Assembly (NCBI GenBank): GCA_963557435.1
Contig: CAUWEK010000001.1
Coordinates: forward strand, 1 to 48,188
Source: an uncultured Dysosmobacter sp.
GTDB lineage: Bacteria > Bacillota > Clostridia > Oscillospirales > Oscillospiraceae
Direction: 5' to 3'
DNA length: 48,188 nucleotides
Part shown: in pieces, positions 2,822 through 19,573 of the stretch
How the letters are laid out: every line of letters begins with the position of its first letter
Numbering within the stretch: the first letter of the stretch is position 1
Made by a program: the position numbers and the translations under genes
Notes under the pieces: model-generated
Database searches by the model: none
What the model saw: only the letters and a program-made list of their open reading frames with translations
Told to the model about the DNA's origin: nothing

Positions 2822-3693
2822 TACTGATTGTTGGCGGAAAACACATCGGCCACCTCGCTGATGGCGATGTAGGCGCCCGGGTCGATCTCGTGGACCAGGT
2901 CCTTCATCTTCGTCACCTGGAAGCGGTTGACGATAAAGTAGACCATGGTCTTGGGGGCGTTGGAGTAGCCGCCCCGGGCCTCCATGCGGGTCACGCCGCA
3001 CTCGAAGGCCTCGGAGAGCTCCCGGCAGATGGCGTCGGGCTCCACCGTGATGATCATGGCGCACTTGGCCCGGTCCAGGCCGTCGACGATGAAATCCACG
3101 GTCTTGAGGGCCGCCGCGTAGGTGACGATGGAATAGAGGGGCAAAATCCAGTTTTGCAGCACGATGCCGCAGATGATATAGAGCACCACATTGTAGATCA
3201 TCACGAAGGTGCCCACCGTCACCCCCAGGCGCTTGGCAAAGATGACCGCCATGACTTCGATGCCGTCCATGGCGCCGCCGAAGCGGATGGCCATACCGCT
3301 GCCCACACCGGAGATCAGTCCGCCGAAGAGGGCACACAGCAGCAGGTCCTGTCCCGCCAGGGGCGAGGCAAAGCTCACGTCCACCGGCAGCACATCGGTG
3401 ATGAGCCACGCCGTCAGGGAGTAGATGCAAACGGTGTAGATGGCGTAGAGGGTAAAAAGAAGCCCCTGCTTTTTCAAGCCGTACAAAAACAGCGGAATAT
3501 TCAGCACCAGCAAAAAGACAGACAATGTCATCCACTCCGGCGTCACCTGGGCCAAAAGCATGGACGTGCCGGAGATGCCGCTGTCGTAGAGCTTCACCGG
3601 GGCGAGGAAAATGGTCACGCCCACGGCGTTGATGATGCCCGCCGCCGTCAGGGCGAGCAGATTGGTCAGACGAATTTTTTTCAGCTTGGACAT
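2821..3693 (-). CDS. YitT family membrane protein (DUF2179 C-terminus)
   Basis: SGISG, LNIPLF, GGAMDG repeats; C-terminal GVT...ARGGYS...IDPGAYI; ATG at 3693 behind SD AAGAGGTG. Confidence 0.9.
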   Translation of the reverse strand: MSKLKKIRLTNLLALTAAGIINAVGVTIFLAPVKLYDSGISGTSMLLAQVTPEWMTLSVFLLVLNIPLFLYGLKKQGLLFTLYAIYTVCIYSLTAWLITDVLPVDVSFASPLAGQDLLLCALFGGLISGVGSGMAIRFGGAMDGIEVMAVIFAKRLGVTVGTFVMIYNVVLYIICGIVLQNWILPLYSIVTYAAALKTVDFIVDGLDRAKCAMIITVEPDAICRELSEAFECGVTRMEARGGYSNAPKTMVYFIVNRFQVTKMKDLVHEIDPGAYIAISEVADVFSANNQ

Positions 3694-3727
3694 ACCCACC
3701 TCTTTTCCTGTCGAACAGGCGGCGTGC

Positions 3728-5641
3728 TCAGGAGAGCTCCGCCTGTCCGGTGTACAGTTGATAATAGCGGCCCTTCTGGGCGATCAGGTCGTCGTGGTCG
3801 CCCCGCTCGATGATGCTGCCCTGCTCCAGCACCATGATGGCCTTGGCGTTGCGGACAGTGGACAGGCGATGGGCGATGACGAACACGGTACGTCCGGCCA
3901 TGAGCCGGTCCATACCCTTTTCAATGATCTTTTCCGTGCGGGTATCGATGGAGCTGGTGGCCTCATCCAGAATGAGCACCGGCGGATTGGCACACGCCGC
4001 CCGGGCGATGTTCAAAAGCTGGCGCTCGCCCTGGCTGAGGTTGCCGCCGTCGCCGGAGAGGACCGTGTCGTATCCGTGAGGCAGATGGCGAATGAAGGTA
4101 TCCGCGCCGGCCAGGCGGGCTGCCGCCTCCACCTCCTCGTCGGTGGCGTCCAGGCGGCCGTAGCGGATATTGTCGGCCACGGTGCCGGTAAAGAGGTGCG
4201 TATCCTGGAGCACCACGCCCAAAGAGCGGCGCAGGGAGTCCTTTTCAATGTCCCGCACGTCGATGCCGTCGTAGGTGATGGTGCCGGACTGGATCTCGTA
4301 GAAGCGGTTGATGAGGCTGGTGATGGTGGTCTTGCCGGCGCCGGTGGAGCCCACGAAGGCGATCTTCTGGCCCGGCTTTGCGTACAGGGAGATATCGTGG
4401 AGGATGGTCTTGCGGGGATCGTAGCCGAATACCACATGGTCGAACCGCACATCGCCCCGCAGAGGCACCAGGGTGCCGTCGGGCTTTTTCCAGGCCCACT
4501 CGCCGGTATCGTAGCTGGCTTCCTGCAGCGCGCCGCTGCGATCCTCCGTGACCCGCACCAGCTTGACCTTGCCCTCGTCCACCTCGGGCTCCGTCTCCAT
4601 GACCTCGAACACCCGCTCGGCGCCGGCCACGGCCGCCAGGATGGTGTTGACCTGCTGGGAGATCTGGGTGATGGGCTGGCTCACCTGCCGGGTGTACTGC
4701 AAAAATGCGCCCAGGTCGCCCAGGCCGAACGTGCTGCCGCCAATGGCCATCATGGCGCCCACGCAGCAGGTGATGGCATAGTTGATATAGCTGAGGTTAC
4801 CCATGGCGGGCATCATGGCGCCGGCGTAAGCCTGGGCACGGGTGGCGGCCTGCCGGTAGTTTTCATTGAGTCCGGCAAAGCCGGCCACGGCTGCCTCCTC
4901 GTGGTTGAAGACCTTGATGACCTTCTGGCCCTCGATCATCTCTTCGATATAGCCGTTCACAGCGCCGATGGCCGCCTGCTGGCTGGCAAAGTACCGGCGG
5001 GAACGTCCGCCGATCACCTTCACCACGCCCAGCATCACCACCAGCATGATAAAGGTGATGAGCGTCAGCGTGGGGCTCAGGACGATCATCATGGCGATGG
5101 TGCCCACAAAGTTGAGCGTGCAGGAAATGAGGCTTCCGAAGCTGTTGTTCAGCGCCTCGGACACCGTCTCGATATCGTTGGTATAGCGGCTCATGAGCTC
5201 GCCGTGGGTATGGGTGTCGAAGTACTTGAGTGGCAGGGACTGCATGCGGTCGAACAGGTCGCTGCGGATCTTGGCCACCGTGTTCTGGGACACGTGGACC
5301 ATGATCCGGGCGTAGCCGAAGGAGCAGACCGCGCCCACCACATACACACAGCCCATGAACGCCAGCATTTTGGCAAGGCCCGGGAAGTCGCCGGGCAGGA
5401 TATAGTCGTTGATGAGGGGCTTGATGAGGTAGGACCCGCCCACGGTGCACGCGGAGCTGATGACCAGCAGCACCGCCACCAGGCACAGCGCCGCCTTGTA
5501 GCGGCCCAGATAGCGCATGAGCTTTGCCAGGGTGCCCTTGAGATCCTTGGGCTTTTGATAGCCGTGGCGGCCGGGACCGCCGCCGGGCCCATGCCCCGCT
5601 CCGCCGGGACGCTGTACGGAAATCGGTTTTTTCTCAGCCAC
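3728..5641 (-). CDS. Heterodimeric ABC exporter subunit with consensus NBD (TM288-like)
   Basis: TMD plus NBD; Walker A GSTGAGKTT, signature LSQGERQ, Walker B ILDEATS, H-switch IAHR. Confidence 0.93.
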   Translation of the reverse strand: MAEKKPISVQRPGGAGHGPGGGPGRHGYQKPKDLKGTLAKLMRYLGRYKAALCLVAVLLVISSACTVGGSYLIKPLINDYILPGDFPGLAKMLAFMGCVYVVGAVCSFGYARIMVHVSQNTVAKIRSDLFDRMQSLPLKYFDTHTHGELMSRYTNDIETVSEALNNSFGSLISCTLNFVGTIAMMIVLSPTLTLITFIMLVVMLGVVKVIGGRSRRYFASQQAAIGAVNGYIEEMIEGQKVIKVFNHEEAAVAGFAGLNENYRQAATRAQAYAGAMMPAMGNLSYINYAITCCVGAMMAIGGSTFGLGDLGAFLQYTRQVSQPITQISQQVNTILAAVAGAERVFEVMETEPEVDEGKVKLVRVTEDRSGALQEASYDTGEWAWKKPDGTLVPLRGDVRFDHVVFGYDPRKTILHDISLYAKPGQKIAFVGSTGAGKTTITSLINRFYEIQSGTITYDGIDVRDIEKDSLRRSLGVVLQDTHLFTGTVADNIRYGRLDATDEEVEAAARLAGADTFIRHLPHGYDTVLSGDGGNLSQGERQLLNIARAACANPPVLILDEATSSIDTRTEKIIEKGMDRLMAGRTVFVIAHRLSTVRNAKAIMVLEQGSIIERGDHDDLIAQKGRYYQLYTGQAELS

Positions 5642-7397
5642 CGATGCTCACTCCTTCCTGCTGTGCCGTATAGACCTCGCGATAGATCTCGCTGTTTTTC
5701 ATCAGTTCTTCATGGGTGCCCTGGGCCACCACACGGCCCCCGTCCATGACCAGAATGAGATCCGCCTGGCAGATGGAGCTCACCCGCTGGGCAATGATGA
5801 TCTTGGTGGTGTCCCCCAACTCCGTGGCAAAGGCCTGGCGGATCTTGGCGTCTGTGGCCGTGTCCACGGCGCTGGTGGAGTCATCCAGGATCAGCACGCG
5901 GGGCTGCTTCAAAATGGCACGGGCGATGCACAGCCGCTGCTTCTGGCCGCCGGAGACATTGACGCCGCCCTGTCCCAGGTCGGTGTCCAGCCCGTCGGGC
6001 ATGCGCTCCAGGAACTCATCGGCGCAGGCACTGCGGCAGGCTTCCCAGAGCTGTTCGTCCGTGGCGTTGGGATTGCCCCAGAGGAGATTTTCCCGGATGG
6101 TGCCGGAAAAAAGGGTGTTCTTTTGCAGCACCACGCTCACCGCGTCCCGCAGATGCTCCATGGTGTAGTCCTTTACAGGGCGGCCGCCCACGCGTACCGT
6201 GCCCTCCGTGGCCTCATACAGCCGGGGGATCAGGGACACCAGCGTGGTCTTGGCGCTGCCGGTGCCGCCCAGAATGCCCACGGTCTGGCCGGAGCGGATG
6301 TGCAGGTCCACATCCCGCAAGATCCACTCGGGGCTGCTGCGGTCATACTTAAAGGATACATGGTCAAAGTCGATGCTGCCGTCCCGAACGGTGGCGGGGA
6401 CCGCCTTGCCGTTCTCGTCCTGCTCCGTGACCGCCGCCTCGTTGGTGATGGCGGGCACCTCCTGCAGCACCTCCACGATCCGCTTGGCGCAGGCCACAGA
6501 CCGGGTCATCATCATGAACATCATGGAAACCATCATCAGCGAGATCATGATCTGGGTGATATAGGTGAAGTAGGTCAGAAGCTTGCCGGCTTCCAGGGTG
6601 CCGGCGTAGACCATCTGGCCGCCGAACCACATGACGGCGATGATGGTGCCGTAGATGATGAGCATCATCACCGGCATATTGATGACCACCATGCCGAAGG
6701 CCTTCTGAGAGGTGGCACGCAGGTCGTTGTTGCGCTTGGCGAACTTCTCCCGCTCATAGTCCTCCTGGACGAAGGACTTCACCACCCGGATGCCCGTCAG
6801 GTTCTCCTGCACCACCAGGTTCAGCGCGTCGGTCTTTTCCTGGAGGGAGCGGAACAGGGGGCTGGCCTTGGTCAAAATGAGGGCCACCACCACGATCAAA
6901 AGGGGCAGCGCCACCAGGAAGACGTTGCTGAGCTGATAGCTGATGCGGATGGACAAAAACAATGCCGCCACCAGCATCACCGGGGCGCGCACCAGAAGGC
7001 GCATGCCCATCATCAGCGTCATCTGCATGTTGTTGACGTCGTTGGTCAGGCGGGTCACGAGAGAGGCCGTGGAAAACTTCTCGATGTTGGAAAAGGCAAA
7101 CTCCTGGATATGGCCGTACTGGGCGGCGCGCAGATTGGCGCCGAAGCCCTGGCCGGCAATGGCGGAGCAGGCCGCGCCGCCCAGGCCGAAGCACAGCGAC
7201 ACCATGGCCATGATCACCATCTGGATGCCCTTCCGGGTCACATAGGACTGATCGGCATTTGCGATGCCGATGTCCACGATATCGCTCATCACCAGGGGGA
7301 TGAGCAGCTCAAAGATGGCCTCCATGGCGCTGCACGCAACGCCCAGGACGATCCACCGGCTGTATGGCCGCAGATGCGGCCAAAGTGTTTTTCTCAT
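5634..7397 (-). CDS. Heterodimeric ABC exporter subunit with degenerate NBD (TM287-like)
   Basis: Start MRKTLWPHL overlaps the marR stop (ATGA); Walker A GGTGSAKT, VSGGQKQ, ILDDSTS (E to D), IAQR (H to Q). Confidence 0.93.
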   Translation of the reverse strand: MRKTLWPHLRPYSRWIVLGVACSAMEAIFELLIPLVMSDIVDIGIANADQSYVTRKGIQMVIMAMVSLCFGLGGAACSAIAGQGFGANLRAAQYGHIQEFAFSNIEKFSTASLVTRLTNDVNNMQMTLMMGMRLLVRAPVMLVAALFLSIRISYQLSNVFLVALPLLIVVVALILTKASPLFRSLQEKTDALNLVVQENLTGIRVVKSFVQEDYEREKFAKRNNDLRATSQKAFGMVVINMPVMMLIIYGTIIAVMWFGGQMVYAGTLEAGKLLTYFTYITQIMISLMMVSMMFMMMTRSVACAKRIVEVLQEVPAITNEAAVTEQDENGKAVPATVRDGSIDFDHVSFKYDRSSPEWILRDVDLHIRSGQTVGILGGTGSAKTTLVSLIPRLYEATEGTVRVGGRPVKDYTMEHLRDAVSVVLQKNTLFSGTIRENLLWGNPNATDEQLWEACRSACADEFLERMPDGLDTDLGQGGVNVSGGQKQRLCIARAILKQPRVLILDDSTSAVDTATDAKIRQAFATELGDTTKIIIAQRVSSICQADLILVMDGGRVVAQGTHEELMKNSEIYREVYTAQQEGVSIGG

Positions 7398-7831
7398 GTG
7401 ATCTGATCCTCCTCCAGATTTTGTATGATGCGCCCCAGCAGGGAGCGGAACGTCTCCACTTCCTCCGGGGTCAAGCCCCGCAGCATGCACTCCTCCGCCG
7501 CCCGAAAGTTCTTGCGGAACAGGGCCTGCTGTTCTCTTCCCTTGTCTGTGAGGGTAATGAAGCGGCGGCGTGCGTCCGCGCCGCTGACGCTGCGCTCCAC
7601 CATTCCCTTTTCCTCCAGCCGGTCCAAAATCCCGTTGGCCGTGGACGGCTTCACCTTTAAAAACGCGGTCAGCTGACACTGAGGTGCCTGCCCGCCGTGG
7701 TGGGCCAGGTACAGCAGCACGTGGGTCTGCACCGGCGTTACGTCGTACTGACTCAGTCGTGCCTCCAGTCTGCTCCTTGCCAGTTGGACTGCATGCCCCA
7801 TCTGTGGCGCCAGCGCGTTGATCTGCTGCAT
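7394..7831 (-). CDS. MarR-family transcriptional regulator
   Basis: VTPVQTHVL..., ILDRLEEKGMVER...DARRRFITLTDKG winged helix; SD GGGAGG. Confidence 0.92.
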   Translation of the reverse strand: MQQINALAPQMGHAVQLARSRLEARLSQYDVTPVQTHVLLYLAHHGGQAPQCQLTAFLKVKPSTANGILDRLEEKGMVERSVSGADARRRFITLTDKGREQQALFRKNFRAAEECMLRGLTPEEVETFRSLLGRIIQNLEEDQIT

Positions 7832-7848
7832 GACGCACCTCCCGTTTC

Positions 7849-7880
7849 ATTTAGCCTGCTAAATATTAGCATGCTAAATA
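7849..7880. promoter_or_regulatory. Tandem palindromic MarR operators
   Basis: ATTTAGC-CT-GCTAAAT followed by ATTAGC-AT-GCTAAAT, overlapping the -10/TSS of the marR promoter. Confidence 0.75.
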
Positions 7881-7906
7881 CTACCATGGAGCCGGAGAAA
7901 ATGCAA
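7878..7906 (-). promoter_or_regulatory. SigA promoter of marR-ABC operon
   Basis: TTGCAT-17 bp-TAGTAT on the minus strand. Confidence 0.6.
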
Positions 7907-8000
7907 TGTTCATATTGCCAATATTTTTGAACAGTTTATGAATGAAATTCCGGAAAAACGCATGGGTTGTAAACAAATTGTGAAGCTTATCCCGGACCTG

Positions 8001-8029
8001 TTGACTTTCGCTTCCGGTGTGGGTATCAT
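8001..8029 (+). promoter_or_regulatory. SigA promoter of candidate sRNA
   Basis: TTGACT-17 bp-TATCAT; direct repeat TGTAAA-N5-TGTGAA upstream at 7968-7984. Confidence 0.7.
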
Positions 8030-8035
8030 GAACTC

Positions 8036-8139
8036 ATCAAGCACAGATGCTTGTGATCCAGGCAACATTTTCCCTCTCCTTTCTCTATATCATACAGGAA
8101 AGCGGGCAGCCGTTGGGCTGCCCGCTTTCCTGTTTTTTT
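8036..8139 (+). ncRNA. Candidate small regulatory RNA (~105 nt) with anti-Shine-Dalgarno loop
   Basis: Own promoter; 5' hairpin CAAGCA-CAGA-TGCTTG; CU-rich stretch CAACATTTTCCCTCTCCTTTCTCT; perfect 18-bp terminator stem 8094-8133 with T-tract; no SD-preceded ORF on this strand. Confidence 0.65.
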
Positions 8140-8173
8140 GCCCTGGACGATGCATCTGCATCTCACCTGTATT

Positions 8174-8226
8174 TTATTGAAAAACGATAAAAAAAGATTG
8201 ACTTTCGATATGCTCCGTGCTACGAT
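8174..8226 (+). promoter_or_regulatory. Promoter and putative Cro/XRE operator of the DUF2975 operon
   Basis: TTATTG-AAAAA-CGATAA imperfect palindrome (8174-8190); TTGACT-17 bp-TACGAT (8198-8226). Confidence 0.6.
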
Positions 8227-8250
8227 GCCCATAGTAAAGGAGGAATGTCC

Positions 8251-8847
8251 ATGGAATCTTCCCGTATCTATAAAATTGCCCGGATACTCAACGCCCTGGT
8301 CCTGGTCGCCCTGGTGTGCAACATCGTCATTTTATATCTGGTCCCCGTGGCGGTGGTGTCCCTGGAGCTGTCGGACGGGTACGGTCTTCTGGCAGGCGTG
8401 GCGGCCTATCTGGGGGACTTCTTCCGCCCCGGTCAAAACGATGTCCTGACCGCCGGCGCCGCCGCCAGCTTTCTTGCCTGGTTTTGGTGCTGGAAGAGCC
8501 CCAAGGCATTGATGCTGACGCTGTTTCTGGTGGTTTCCGGCATCTGCACGGCTGTCATCCTCTGGCAGGGACGGCGGGTGCTGCGGACTATCCTGCGGGG
8601 CACCCCCTTCTCGGCGGAAAACGCCGTCTCATTGCGCCGGGCAGCGATCTGCTGCTTTGTGATCGCCGGAGCGGCGGCGGTACGGGTCGGGTGGAGCATC
8701 TGGTTTTTCCGTTCTCTCTTCCCTCTGGTCACTTATAATGCCCTCTTCGTCCCCATCTTTGCCATGGCGGGGCTTTTGTGCCTGGTCATGTCGGCTCTGT
8801 TCCGTCAGGCCGCCGAAATGAAGGCGGAGAACGACCTGACGATCTAA
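8251..8847 (+). CDS. DUF2975 (YoaS-like) membrane protein
   Basis: About 4 TM helices; G.PFS.EN..SLR and C-terminal LFRQAAEMKAENDLTI signature; SD AAGGAGG. Confidence 0.85.
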   Translation: MESSRIYKIARILNALVLVALVCNIVILYLVPVAVVSLELSDGYGLLAGVAAYLGDFFRPGQNDVLTAGAAASFLAWFWCWKSPKALMLTLFLVVSGICTAVILWQGRRVLRTILRGTPFSAENAVSLRRAAICCFVIAGAAAVRVGWSIWFFRSLFPLVTYNALFVPIFAMAGLLCLVMSALFRQAAEMKAENDLTI

Positions 8848-16248: not shown

Positions 16249-17691
16249 TCAGGTACCGATGCCGAAGATGCCCATGGTCCCGCCGTCGAGCCTGATGCGG
16301 AACACCCCCCGGCCTATAATCTTCAGACCCAGGCCGCAGGTGACCAGATCCTTCATGGTGATCTCGCCGGTACCATAAGCGATGGCATTGGGGGGAGTGG
16401 CGGGGGGCAGCATAAAGGCGAAGTTGCACGCCAGCATGGTGGCGATCATCATGGCGAAGGGGCTCACGCCGATAGCCTCGCCCACGCCGGCCAGCACGGG
16501 GATGAAGGCGGCCACCACCACAGCGTTGGTGGTCAGCTCGGTCAGCAGAGCGGTGACGATACCCACGATGATGCAGATGACCACGGCGTTCATGCCTTCC
16601 AGGCCGGAGAGCATGTTGGCGACCCAGCCAGCCACGCCGGCATCCTTGAAGGCGTTGCCCATGACCATGGAGCCGCCCAGCAGGATGACCGCGTTCCAGG
16701 GAATGTCATTGAAGCCGGTCTTCCAGTCGCAGACATACTCGCCTTCCTTGTAGTCCACAGGGATGGCCATGACCAGGAAAGCGCCCAGCATAGCCACGGT
16801 CTCGTCAGTGGCGAAGGGGACCCAGTCGCCCCAGACCAGAGAACGGGTGACCCACAGCACAACGCAGAAGGAGAACACGATAGCAGTCCACTTCTCGCCC
16901 TTGTTCATGGGGCCCAGCTCCTCATACTGCTTGCGGGCGATGGAGATGTCGATGGAGGGCATCTTGTCCACCTTGAAGAACTTGACCATGTAGATCCACA
17001 TCAGGGGGATCAGCACGATGGTGAAGGGCAGGCCGATCTTCAGCCAGTCCAAAAAGTCGATCTCAATGCCGATGGTGGACTGGATCAGGCCGATGCCGGT
17101 AGGGTTGGTGGTGGTGCCGATGGTGGTGGCCATGCCGCCGATGGTGGCAGCATAGGGAATGCACAGCACCATGGCCTTGCGCAGGCCCTTGGCATCCTCA
17201 CCCAGCGTGCTGGCGATGGCCAGAGCCACAGGCAGCATCATGACGGTGGCAGCGGTGTTGGACATCCACATGGACACGAAAGCAACAGCAAGAATGAAGC
17301 CCAGGATCAGCGTGGTGGGCTTTTTGCCGATCTTGGAGACGATGCCCAGGCTGATGCGCTTGTGCAGGCCATGCTTGACCATGGCGCCGGACATGAAGCC
17401 CACGCCAACCAGCAGGTAGCAGGTGGAATAGGCGTAGTGGGTGAACAGCTGCACATCATTTTCACCCTTGGCGCCGGTGATCCCCATCAAGGGGAACAAA
17501 AGAATCGGAAGCAGTGCAGTGAACGGGATGGGCATGGCCTCAGTGATCCAGAAGACCACCATCAGCACGGTGACCGCCAGCACCCGCTGGCCCACCAGTG
17601 TCAATCCCTCGGGGGTGGGCATGAAGCCGATGATCAGCATCAGCAAAATGCCCACGATGAATCCGATTTTGCGAATCTTGTATTTACCCAT
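16249..17691 (-). CDS. DASS/SLC13 dicarboxylate transporter, copy 1 (480 aa)
   Basis: WITEAMP, GLHKRI, SMWMSNTA, IGGMAT.IGT..N, FMLPP.TPPNAI. Confidence 0.92.
   Translation of the reverse strand: MGKYKIRKIGFIVGILLMLIIGFMPTPEGLTLVGQRVLAVTVLMVVFWITEAMPIPFTALLPILLFPLMGITGAKGENDVQLFTHYAYSTCYLLVGVGFMSGAMVKHGLHKRISLGIVSKIGKKPTTLILGFILAVAFVSMWMSNTAATVMMLPVALAIASTLGEDAKGLRKAMVLCIPYAATIGGMATTIGTTTNPTGIGLIQSTIGIEIDFLDWLKIGLPFTIVLIPLMWIYMVKFFKVDKMPSIDISIARKQYEELGPMNKGEKWTAIVFSFCVVLWVTRSLVWGDWVPFATDETVAMLGAFLVMAIPVDYKEGEYVCDWKTGFNDIPWNAVILLGGSMVMGNAFKDAGVAGWVANMLSGLEGMNAVVICIIVGIVTALLTELTTNAVVVAAFIPVLAGVGEAIGVSPFAMMIATMLACNFAFMLPPATPPNAIAYGTGEITMKDLVTCGLGLKIIGRGVFRIRLDGGTMGIFGIGT
16648..16983. repeat. 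336-bp tract identical to 18530-18865
   Basis: Base-by-base comparison of the two DASS genes (offset 1882) shows no mismatch in this interval. Confidence 0.9.
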
Positions 17692-18130: not shown

Positions 18131-19573
18131 TCAGGTGCCGATCCCAAAAACGCCCATGGTAATGAAGTAGAGCACGATGGGGAACACCACCAGGGCGATG
18201 ATCTTCAATCCCAGGCCGCATTTCATCAGATCCTTCATGGTGATCTCGCCGGTACCGTAGGCAATGGCGTTGGGCGGCGTGCCCGGAGGCAGCATGAAGG
18301 CAAAGTTGCACGCCAGCATGCAGGCGATCATCATGGCGAAGGGGCTCACGCCGATGGCCTGGCCCACACCGGCCAGCACGGGGATGAAGGCGGCCACCAC
18401 CACGGCGTTGGTGGTCAGCTCCGTCAGCAGCGCGGTGATGATGCCCACGATGATGACGATGACCACGGAGTTCATGCCCGCAAGGCCGGAGAGCTTCTCC
18501 GCCACCCAGCCGGCCACGCCGGCATCCCGGAAGGCGTTGCCCATGACCATGGAGCCGCCCAGCAGGATGACCGCGTTCCAGGGAATGTCATTGAAGCCGG
18601 TCTTCCAGTCGCAGACATACTCGCCTTCCTTGTAGTCCACAGGGATGGCCATGACCAGGAAAGCGCCCAGCATAGCCACGGTCTCGTCAGTGGCGAAGGG
18701 GACCCAGTCGCCCCAGACCAGAGAACGGGTGACCCACAGCACAACGCAGAAGGAGAACACGATAGCAGTCCACTTCTCGCCCTTGTTCATGGGGCCCAGC
18801 TCCTCATACTGCTTGCGGGCGATGGAGATGTCGATGGAGGGCATCTTGTCCACCTTGAAGAACTTCACCATGTAGATCCACATCAGGGGGACCAGCACGA
18901 TGGTGAAGGGCAGGCCGATCTTCAGCCAGTCCAAAAAGTCGATCTCGATGCCGATGGACTCTTTGATCAATCCGATGCCGGTGGGGTTGGTGGTGGTGCC
19001 GATGACCGTGGCCATACCGCCGATGGTGGCGGCATAGGGGATGCACAGCACCATGGCCTTGCGCAATCCCTTGGCCTCGTCTCCCATGGTGCTGGCGATG
19101 GCCAGGGCCACAGGCAGCATCATAACGGTGGCGGCGGTGTTGGACATCCACATGGAAACGAAGGAAACGGCGATGATGAAGCCCAGGATCAGCGTGGTGG
19201 GCTTTTTGCCGATCTTGGAGACAATGCCCAGGCTGATGCGCTTGTGCAGACCGTGCTTGACCATGGACCCGGACAAGAAGCCCACGCCAACCAGCAGGTA
19301 GCAGGTGGAATAGGCGTAGTGAGTGAACAGCTGCACGTCATTTTGTCCCTTGGAGCCGGTAATGCCCATGAGCGGGAACAGCAAAATGGGCAGCAATGCG
19401 GTAAACGGGATCGGCATGGCCTCGGTGATCCAGAAGACCACCATCAGCACGGTGACCGCCAGCACCCGCTGGCCCACCAGTGTCAATCCCTCAGGGGTGG
19501 GCATGAAGCCGATGATGAGCATCAGCACAACGCCCACGATAAACCCGATCTTTTGGACCTTTGTTTTACCCAT
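18131..19573 (-). CDS. DASS/SLC13 dicarboxylate transporter, copy 2 (480 aa)
   Basis: Same motifs as copy 1; start MGKTKVQK behind SD AGGAGGAG; about 40 of 480 residues differ from copy 1 (hand count). Confidence 0.93.
   Translation of the reverse strand: MGKTKVQKIGFIVGVVLMLIIGFMPTPEGLTLVGQRVLAVTVLMVVFWITEAMPIPFTALLPILLFPLMGITGSKGQNDVQLFTHYAYSTCYLLVGVGFLSGSMVKHGLHKRISLGIVSKIGKKPTTLILGFIIAVSFVSMWMSNTAATVMMLPVALAIASTMGDEAKGLRKAMVLCIPYAATIGGMATVIGTTTNPTGIGLIKESIGIEIDFLDWLKIGLPFTIVLVPLMWIYMVKFFKVDKMPSIDISIARKQYEELGPMNKGEKWTAIVFSFCVVLWVTRSLVWGDWVPFATDETVAMLGAFLVMAIPVDYKEGEYVCDWKTGFNDIPWNAVILLGGSMVMGNAFRDAGVAGWVAEKLSGLAGMNSVVIVIIVGIITALLTELTTNAVVVAAFIPVLAGVGQAIGVSPFAMMIACMLACNFAFMLPPGTPPNAIAYGTGEITMKDLMKCGLGLKIIALVVFPIVLYFITMGVFGIGT

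Follow-up and report, generated by a model that had tools for sequence, protein, structure and literature searches.

The gap between a marR-ABC operon on the minus strand and a DUF2975 operon on the plus strand raises the question of whether it holds a gene of its own and, if so, what that gene does and what controls it. A preliminary description of this DNA had proposed a self-contained small RNA (sRNA) with an anti-SD and anti-AUG tract, placed under a single OmpR-type box. We analysed the whole stretch (hereafter the window; 48,188 nt) together with related genomes. The box, promoter, hairpin, tract, 18-pair stem and T-run described earlier are all confirmed in place, as are the divergent flanks (Table 1). 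We are confident that the locus is a real, stand-alone small-RNA gene of about 105 nt conserved in Oscillibacter-type gut bacteria, with transcription predicted to run from about 8036 to 8139. The sRNA family is undescribed, the class of mechanism itself being already known.

Table 1. Coordinates of the RNA gene, its boxes and its flanks in the window, and of the sister RNA elsewhere in the genome
Feature	Position	Strand	Remarks
Box 1, TTTGAA-N5-TATGAA	7926..7942		42 nt upstream of box 2
Box 2, TGTAAA-N5-TGTGAA (minus strand TTCACA-N5-TTTACA)	7968..7984		Centre near -60 of the predicted start
Sigma-A-type promoter, TTGACT-17-TATCAT	8001..8029	+	TTGACT 8001-8006, 17 nt, TATCAT 8024-8029; 10/12 match
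Predicted sRNA, ~105 nt	8036..8139	+	Start from promoter spacing and a conserved A
5′ hairpin, CAAGCA/UGCUUG	8038..8053	+	
Anti-start codon, CAU	8066..8068	+	
Unpaired, nearly invariant C/U tract	8069..8093	+	
Intrinsic terminator	8094..8139	+	18-bp stem (8094-8133), 4-nt loop, U-tract to 8139
marR and two fused ABC exporter genes	3728..7831	-	Usual divergent neighbour; Pfam
Divergent marR promoter, TTGCAT-17-TAGTAT	7878..7906	-	Sequence reading only
Palindrome TTAGCATGCTAA	7866..7877		Two TTAGCA(T/G)GCTAA repeats over the marR start, 7850-7877; likely MarR operator; outside the RNA gene
Promoter of the DUF2975 / HTH_26 / DUF4153 operon, TTGACT-17-TACGAT	8198..8226	+	The operon's own promoter; operon start 8251
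Sister RNA, second undescribed anti-SD sRNA	G000:C29, ~3651-3749 (with box 3591-3749)	+	Between rnhA and an ArgZ-like gene; L170, L173-L202

The -35 element of the RNA promoter reads TTGACT in 55 and TTGACA in 31 of 87 loci, and the -10 element TATGAT in 60 and TATCAT in 16. Upstream, marR-ABC is the neighbour in 82 of 91 loci, and in 82 of 91 no plus-strand gene ends upstream of the RNA; downstream, the DUF2975 operon follows in just 50 of the 85 loci with enough sequence. Box 2 lies 15-17 nt before the -35 element in 91/91 loci, including all nine that lack marR-ABC, where box-1-like repeats are visible too. Since the boxes stay with the RNA while the gene that follows it differs between loci, the RNA is not a leader, and its independence of the operon at 8251, which has its own promoter, stands as first described. 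A palindrome similar to that over the marR start is seen at locus L069. Elsewhere in the window, two near-identical adjacent membrane transporter genes (16249-17691 and 18131-19573, minus strand) adjoin larA-like, malic-enzyme and sigma-54-type activator-like genes.

Searches with blastn found the RNA unit in 28 of 36 same-genus genomes, with promoter, hairpin, tract and terminator kept together as the preliminary description would have them; the 24 genomes that belong to other families of the order yielded no match. The genomes behind our conservation counts are kin and not independent. When five of the eight missed genomes were searched again with the covariance model R1, two gave 56-58 bits, and the same model matched five out of five further genus genomes (64-101 bits). 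An exact 27-nt tract pattern occurs at no fewer than 80 loci in species-representative genomes, whose titles are mostly Oscillibacter, Dysosmobacter and unclassified Oscillospiraceae/Clostridia, one being labelled Lachnospiraceae. Carriers of the RNA include O. ruminantium GH1 and O. valericigenes Sjm18-20, the latter with a complete genome.

The fold is conserved as well. An alignment of 24 RNAs has two-sided changes at 16 of the 19 terminator pairs and 96.6% of cells paired, and these covariation measures were reached by 0 of 500 shuffles, a result that kinship among the sequences inflates. Pair counts from a further alignment, A3, were left out, as it contained 42 reverse-strand terminator matches. 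A terminator of at least 14 bp folds in all 87 distinct homologues, the U-tract being weak in some. The 105-nt RNA has a fold z of -8.05; its centroid gives both hairpins described earlier, and its MFE structure takes an isoenergetic alternative to the 5′ hairpin. This hairpin aligns poorly (71% paired), yet 83 of the 87 homologues form at least 5 bp within the first 26 nt. The C/U tract has a median unpaired probability of 0.97 across homologues. Freely changing stems around a fixed single-stranded core give the molecule the look of a base-pairing sRNA. Longer versions of the RNA also occur, with about 100 extra nt in L206 (G231:C1:1942024-1942300) and about 25 in L034, inserted between start and tract; promoter, boxes and tract are all intact in both.

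No Rfam family fits the RNA, as the preliminary description had supposed: tRNAs aside, Rfam covariance models gave no match at gathering score in the window, at the sister locus or at 11 other-genus loci, and the best sub-threshold scores, at most 22.5 bits against cut-offs of 42-140, were at chance level by E-value. As for paralogous copies, neither blastn nor the covariance model found a close paralogue in the own genome; what does exist there is a non-homologous sister RNA under the same box. There were 0 exact tract matches in IMG/VR, the source of phage and viral sequences. A long, perfect antisense partner of the antitoxin type was rejected, the longest match elsewhere in the genome being 13 nt. 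A full-text literature search, with most subscription journals outside its reach, found no description of the RNA or of the regulon discussed below. The tract strings are absent from the text-searchable supplements of Fremin and Bhatt 2021 (PMC8040213), which are separate from its sequence and alignment files, and no Oscillibacter row in those supplements names DUF2975 or DUF4153; the candidates of that study may nevertheless include this RNA.

What the RNA might do is suggested by its tract. The reverse complement of 8063-8086 reads AGAAAGGAG, 7 nt, ATG, which confirms the earlier observation that it complements a whole ribosome-binding site. Of the 29 loci found by blastn, a set not picked by the tract, 27 contain its core CUCCUUUCU (8076-8084), and these nine bases equal the last nine of the 16S rRNA tail in the relative G231. 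A UCCC at 8071-8074, a C-rich motif complementary to the SD, also sits within the unpaired tract. The anti-start codon takes the form CAU at 74 and CAC at two of the 93 distinct loci, and 17 have neither; thus, of the anti-SD and anti-AUG pairing first proposed, the former stands and the latter is common but dispensable. On these features the RNA is probably an anti-SD repressor of translation.

The single box first described, box 2, is matched by a second, equally conserved box upstream that had been overlooked. TGTAAA-N5-TGTGAA has a sole match in the window at up to one mismatch (0.01 expected). Box 2 is found in 87/87 distinct loci, 16 nt before the -35 element in 85, and a strict pattern detects box 1 in 81 of the 87, the two boxes being 40-43 nt apart in 79. 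Each consists of two half-sites with an 11-bp period, and these direct repeats of hexamers, in phase with the promoter, agree with the OmpR-type assignment made at the outset; their orientation is opposite to that at the sister RNA, htrA and groES. Box 2 is a predicted OmpR-family activator site, and control of the RNA by a regulator of this family is likely. The suggested link to WalR is not supported. The WalR consensus is TGTWAH-N5-TGTWAH; TGTWAH describes the first half of box 2 at 105 of 107 loci and the second half at 0 of 107 (loci not de-duplicated), and the genes sharing the box are htrA, groES and ctsR, not wall hydrolases. Two further consensus sequences were absent from the same 107 loci, again not de-duplicated: the Rex inverted repeat TTGTGAA-N4-TTCACAA and the CiaR box NTTAAG-N5-TTTAAG placed ten nt before the -10 element each occurred in 0/107.

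A scan with the box also yielded the sister RNA, which an anti-SD-plus-hairpin scan had overlooked, so the latter scan is not exhaustive. The sister RNA occurs in 57 of 60 genus genomes and is non-homologous to the RNA at 8036-8139. Its promoter carries TTYACA-N5-TTCAYA at an activator position, the first half-site lying 48 nt before a bare -10 element in 29 of 30 loci, and the phase of this box matches that of the htrA array in 19/20. The transcript would have a UCCC loop (30/30), an unpaired CUCCCUCCU (28/30) and a terminator; the csRNA nonamer [A/C]UCCUAAA[A/C] is found in 28 of the 30 loci, and the RNA has no Rfam match.

Beyond the genus, model R1 gave weak matches in 51 of 150 genomes (one of them same-genus), many being mere terminators. 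Among the 28 best other-genus loci, 11 carry a box scoring at least 10, compared with 20 of 600 background windows; 10 of these 11 have it in the sense orientation, with the -10 element at 37, 48 or 59-60 nt. The eleventh, locus L126 from another genus, is syntenic, with the same box layout beside the RNA and marR-ABC as neighbour. Boxed pyrimidine-tract RNAs thus appear to be a family-level trait, a statement that does not extend to their mutual homology. A strict pattern of box, -10 element and anti-SD occurred in 10 of 150 family-level genomes against two control matches; by eye, seven of 11 such loci resemble terminated sRNAs and four do not. Model matches at L122, L123, L129, L132, L140, L141 and L154 lie just past stop codons and lack a box; these pyrimidine tracts with CCCUC/CUCC and strong terminators are either ordinary 3′ UTRs or 3′-derived sRNAs.

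Which genes share the box was examined with a matrix and gene calls from our own caller. In the genome, 29 intergenic sites score at least 13, compared with 4-6 in mononucleotide-shuffled intergenic DNA. The top sites precede cstA, hrcA, ctsR, htrA, rodA-like and S-layer-like genes and the sister RNA, the hrcA, rodA-like and S-layer-like genes being identified by reading of their sequences. A comparison with G231, of which 2.4 of 2.82 Mb was taken in, gave six of 533 orthologue pairs scoring at least 12 in both genomes (permutations: mean 0.8, maximum 5, n = 500). These six pairs represent four independent sites, at ctsR, htrA, a GntR-TrkA gene and groES. Upstream regions scoring at least 12 were found for htrA in 18 of 20 genomes (4/100 mononucleotide shuffles) and for groES in 16 of 20 (0/100), the 20 genomes being drawn in each case from those with a gene match (39 for htrA, 35 for groES). 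The box before ctsR was seen in two genomes and that before hrcA in the own genome only.

At groES, hrcA and ctsR the box lies upstream of the -35 element (G000:C240:704-900, C234:1902-2100 and C5:16556-16835; L396-L415). The further repeats in these promoters are presumably CIRCE-like or CtsR-like, and the box beside them hints at positive control of heat-shock operons. The htrA promoter (G000:C57:7993-8180; L376-L395) holds an array of four half-sites. Its proximal pair, TTCAG-N6-TTAAG, lies ten nt before the -10 element, a CiaR-box geometry kept in 19 of 20 loci, and no other strict CiaR-type box was found ahead of a gene in this genome. Such a pair within the array suggests input from two regulators. 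The highest box score of the genome, 23.8, precedes a leader of about 300 nt upstream of cstA (G000:C37:11096-11454, plus strand; L172); the leader contains several TTTAACAA repeats and has no Rfam match at gathering score.

Fifteen Trans_reg_C matches (the OmpR-type DNA-binding domain) are encoded in the genome. One belongs to an OmpR-family regulator at G000:C44:4891-5604, followed by a HAMP kinase and an HtrA-like protease in an operon at 4700-8355 (plus strand; L212-L241). This C44 regulator is highly conserved: 39 of 40 genus genomes encode it, as do 142 of 150 genomes of the family. In its own promoter, TTYACA-N5-TTCAACA stands in for the -35 element at 26 of 30 loci, its phase agreeing to within 1 nt with that of the second and third half-sites of the sister RNA; the second half-site is deviant (TTCAAC), and the matrix score is 4.8 in the own genome and 15.8 in G231. 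No NCBIfam model passes its cut-off for the protein. Among solved structures, SaeR comes closest to it in the DNA-binding domain, and its C-terminus appears ResD/SrrA-like. From this sequence evidence we consider the chances about even that the C44 product is the regulator in question. The pstS promoter carries TTTACA-N5-TTTACA, outside the sites scoring at least 13; this repeat indicates that several regulators use similar half-sites and makes PhoP a possible regulator. A further regulator, C204 (G000:C204:7705-9329), has a CiaR-like recognition helix when set beside Table 1 of PMC3091779, and is divergent from a third trypsin-like protease. On each strand of the intergenic region there, TTCAG-type repeats precede -10-like hexamers at a distance of ten nt. 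A TTCAG-type box accounts for the promoter-proximal half of the htrA array and is absent at both RNAs.

Target predictions were then weighed against controls. The sequence GAAAGGAG lies 5-11 nt before the start in 127 of 2350 genes. In single-genome rankings of duplexes and helices, the best were no better than controls with the core kept and the flanks shuffled. When 927 orthologue pairs were ranked jointly, an ECF sigma factor gave the top duplex (-26.0 kcal/mol), which was matched by 7 of 62 controls; the value at rank 5 was reached by 2 of 62 and that at rank 10 by 4 of 62. The ECF sigma / DUF4179 anti-sigma operon (G000:C54:4828-6650, minus strand; L302, L416-L435) has two ribosome sites that are unusually purine-rich throughout the genus, that of the anti-sigma gene overlapping the sigma coding sequence. 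In 20 genomes, with two or three starts mis-picked, the start ranked in the top 5% of binding for sigma in 13/20 and for anti-sigma in 13/19. This outcome was equalled by 19 of 300 flank-shuffled RNAs, for a gene picked post hoc from the 927 pairs, and the operon is thus a weak candidate target. Membrane or secreted proteins were not enriched among the top-ranked mRNAs (p 0.19 and 1.0), and the neighbours marR, ABC and DUF2975 reached only the 49th-67th percentile. Genes sharing the box bind poorly to moderately (groES 91st percentile, ctsR 61st, htrA 56th, hrcA 18th). Hfq is encoded in the genome.

Taken together, these data lead us to favour, with some reserve, a model in which the anti-SD sRNA represses translation of other mRNAs and is switched on, under protein-folding or envelope stress, by an OmpR-family two-component regulator that also drives htrA, groES, ctsR, hrcA and the sister RNA. 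Stress would lead the phosphorylated regulator to bind near -60 and -102, raising transcription from an otherwise consensus promoter. This regulator would be the C44 product, encoded with its kinase and an HtrA-like protease and having a related box, in phase, in its own promoter. The RNA would seed on GGAG/AGGG and extend over the spacer and start codon where possible, perhaps assisted by Hfq, and would thereby block 30S loading at a set of purine-rich ribosome sites rather than at one perfect partner. The divergent efflux operon may be co-activated.

The same anti-SD sRNA might have its boxes read by a different protein (the PhoB/PhoP-like C17 regulator beside pst, the WalR-like C73 regulator, another OmpR-type or a non-two-component regulator), or the regulator might repress. 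The 15 Trans_reg_C matches, the pstS repeat and the good fit of the first half of box 2 to TGTWAH speak for this, and the RNA promoter is so near to consensus that it may need no activator. Against it, the conserved co-members of the box are htrA, groES and ctsR rather than phosphate or wall-hydrolase genes, pstS does not reach 13, and the WalR second half, the Rex repeat and the CiaR box are each found at none of the 107 loci. A conserved self-box has been shown for C44 alone, the sole regulator compared across genomes. We judge these variants to be rather unlikely. It seems improbable that the RNA is real and yet mainly binds a protein or another RNA, as an Hfq decoy, a sponge for purine-rich sRNAs or a general mimic of the 16S tail, instead of selected mRNAs. 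In that case one could understand why about 25 nt are nearly invariant, beyond what SD pairing needs, with no conserved mRNA partner standing out, and why the core equals the 16S tail; the accessible text of PMC3091779 raises protein binding for the conserved C-rich nonamer of the csRNAs. Against this, 76 of 93 loci have CAU or CAC at the right distance from the anti-SD to preserve SD-to-start spacing. In a target test that covered 84% of the own genome and 85% of G231, natural flanks also had a slight advantage over shuffled flanks at ranks 5 and 10, target prediction being weak by nature for anti-SD RNAs.

Two further readings are less probable still. The tract could serve a small gene on the minus strand as its ribosome-binding site, and the own genome does offer TATGAT, AGAAAGGAG, 7 nt, ATG and a 52-codon frame. 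Across 78 loci, however, the frame runs from 1 to 225 codons with no common sequence and is thus not a conserved gene; the start codon is gone in 17 of 93 loci and TATGAT often becomes TATGGT or TTTGAT. Nor does the element behave as a cis leader or mere terminator for its neighbours, given the varying downstream gene with its own promoter and the 82 of 91 loci in which no plus-strand gene ends upstream. We regard this whole group of explanations as very improbable. Even less credible is the notion of a constitutive RNA whose neighbouring boxes act for the divergent marR-ABC efflux operon. The boxes are in sense orientation for marR, box 1 ends 19 nt before its -35 element, and the operon adjoins the RNA in most loci; but in 9/9 loci without marR-ABC box 2 stays 15-17 nt from the -35 element of the RNA, and the syntenic locus of another genus, L126, keeps box 2 beside the RNA.

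If the favoured model of a stress-activated anti-SD repressor is extended, one can speculate about a folding-stress circuit common to the Oscillospiraceae. One conserved OmpR-type system would activate htrA together with at least two anti-SD sRNAs, and would add activation of the groESL, dnaK and clp operons to their repression by HrcA and CtsR. The RNA described here, an exact mimic of the 16S tail, would damp initiation at many strong sites, including the ECF sigma/anti-sigma operon, so that chaperones rise as protein synthesis falls. Such a circuit, a clostridial and independently evolved counterpart of CiaR-csRNA and LisR-LhrC, is a tentative idea that we hold to be possible but doubtful. 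Oscillibacter and Dysosmobacter are common gut bacteria, in which the literature search found no described sRNA regulation. The present work adds two sRNA families that are conserved, a consensus for the binding site, and candidates for both the sensor pair and the regulon, each of which can be tested in cultured strains. It is also a clean case in which to ask how target choice works for RNAs whose pairing partner is a generic SD.

The closest known parallels are the CiaRH-dependent csRNAs of Streptococcus (Rfam RF02379), which are 87-151 nt long and in which an unpaired anti-SD and anti-AUG separate the 5′ stem-loop from the 3′ one (PMC3091779, accessible part). CAU is present in 53 of 61 (PMC3091779, same part), and their genes, several per genome, carry an OmpR-family direct repeat and belong to a regulon that includes htrA (accessible parts of PMC3091779 and PMC4152353). 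The csRNA-like layout claimed in the preliminary description is indeed present, with two stem-loops, an unpaired anti-SD between them and an anti-start beside it. The two differ in several respects. The box here is TTYAHA-N5-TTYAHA, not NTTAAG-N5-TTTAAG; the promoter has a consensus -35 element, with boxes upstream and reversed; and the nonamer is missing in 29/29 loci of the RNA. The tract is strongly conserved whereas the csRNA anti-TIR regions are variable, and Hfq is present here and reported lacking in streptococci. A search of the whole genome with RF02379 gave nothing at E values up to 1.

LhrC1-5 of Listeria monocytogenes depend on LisRK, an envelope-stress two-component system, through an element upstream of -53 and are RNAs of about 110 nt with two hairpins, a CU-rich single strand and UCCC pairing to SD regions (PMC4132741, accessible part); LisR also controls htrA (PMC6305404, likewise). 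Our RNA resembles them in size, in its CU-rich single-stranded stretch and in the UCCC motif. It has one such stretch rather than three and loops that are not C-rich, and it occurs as a single copy with one non-homologous sister, unlike the five near-identical copies of LhrC, and has no match to the Rfam models. RoxS and RsaE, dependent on ResDE and SrrAB, also pair C-rich regions with the SD, with an activator site at about -65 and a promoter having its own -35 element (PMC4409812, accessible part). They differ in having four C-rich regions against one here; the inferred regulon here is one of chaperones and proteases rather than redox functions, and Rfam again gives no match.

As to the box, the autoregulated OmpR-family system CssRS of Bacillus subtilis activates htrA via TTTTCACA boxes just upstream of the -35 element (PMC6749698, accessible part), and the half-sites TTCACA, TTCATA and TTTACA found here resemble these. 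The present box differs in also preceding groES, hrcA and ctsR, and an sRNA is not mentioned for CssR in that part of PMC6749698. These comparisons suggest that the design seen in streptococci and Listeria, a stress two-component system with HtrA and anti-SD RNAs, evolved a second time in Clostridia, around a different regulator and RNAs that are not related. On our best reading, the RNA would act like the csRNAs, LhrC and RoxS/RsaE, yet without homology to the csRNAs or LhrC.
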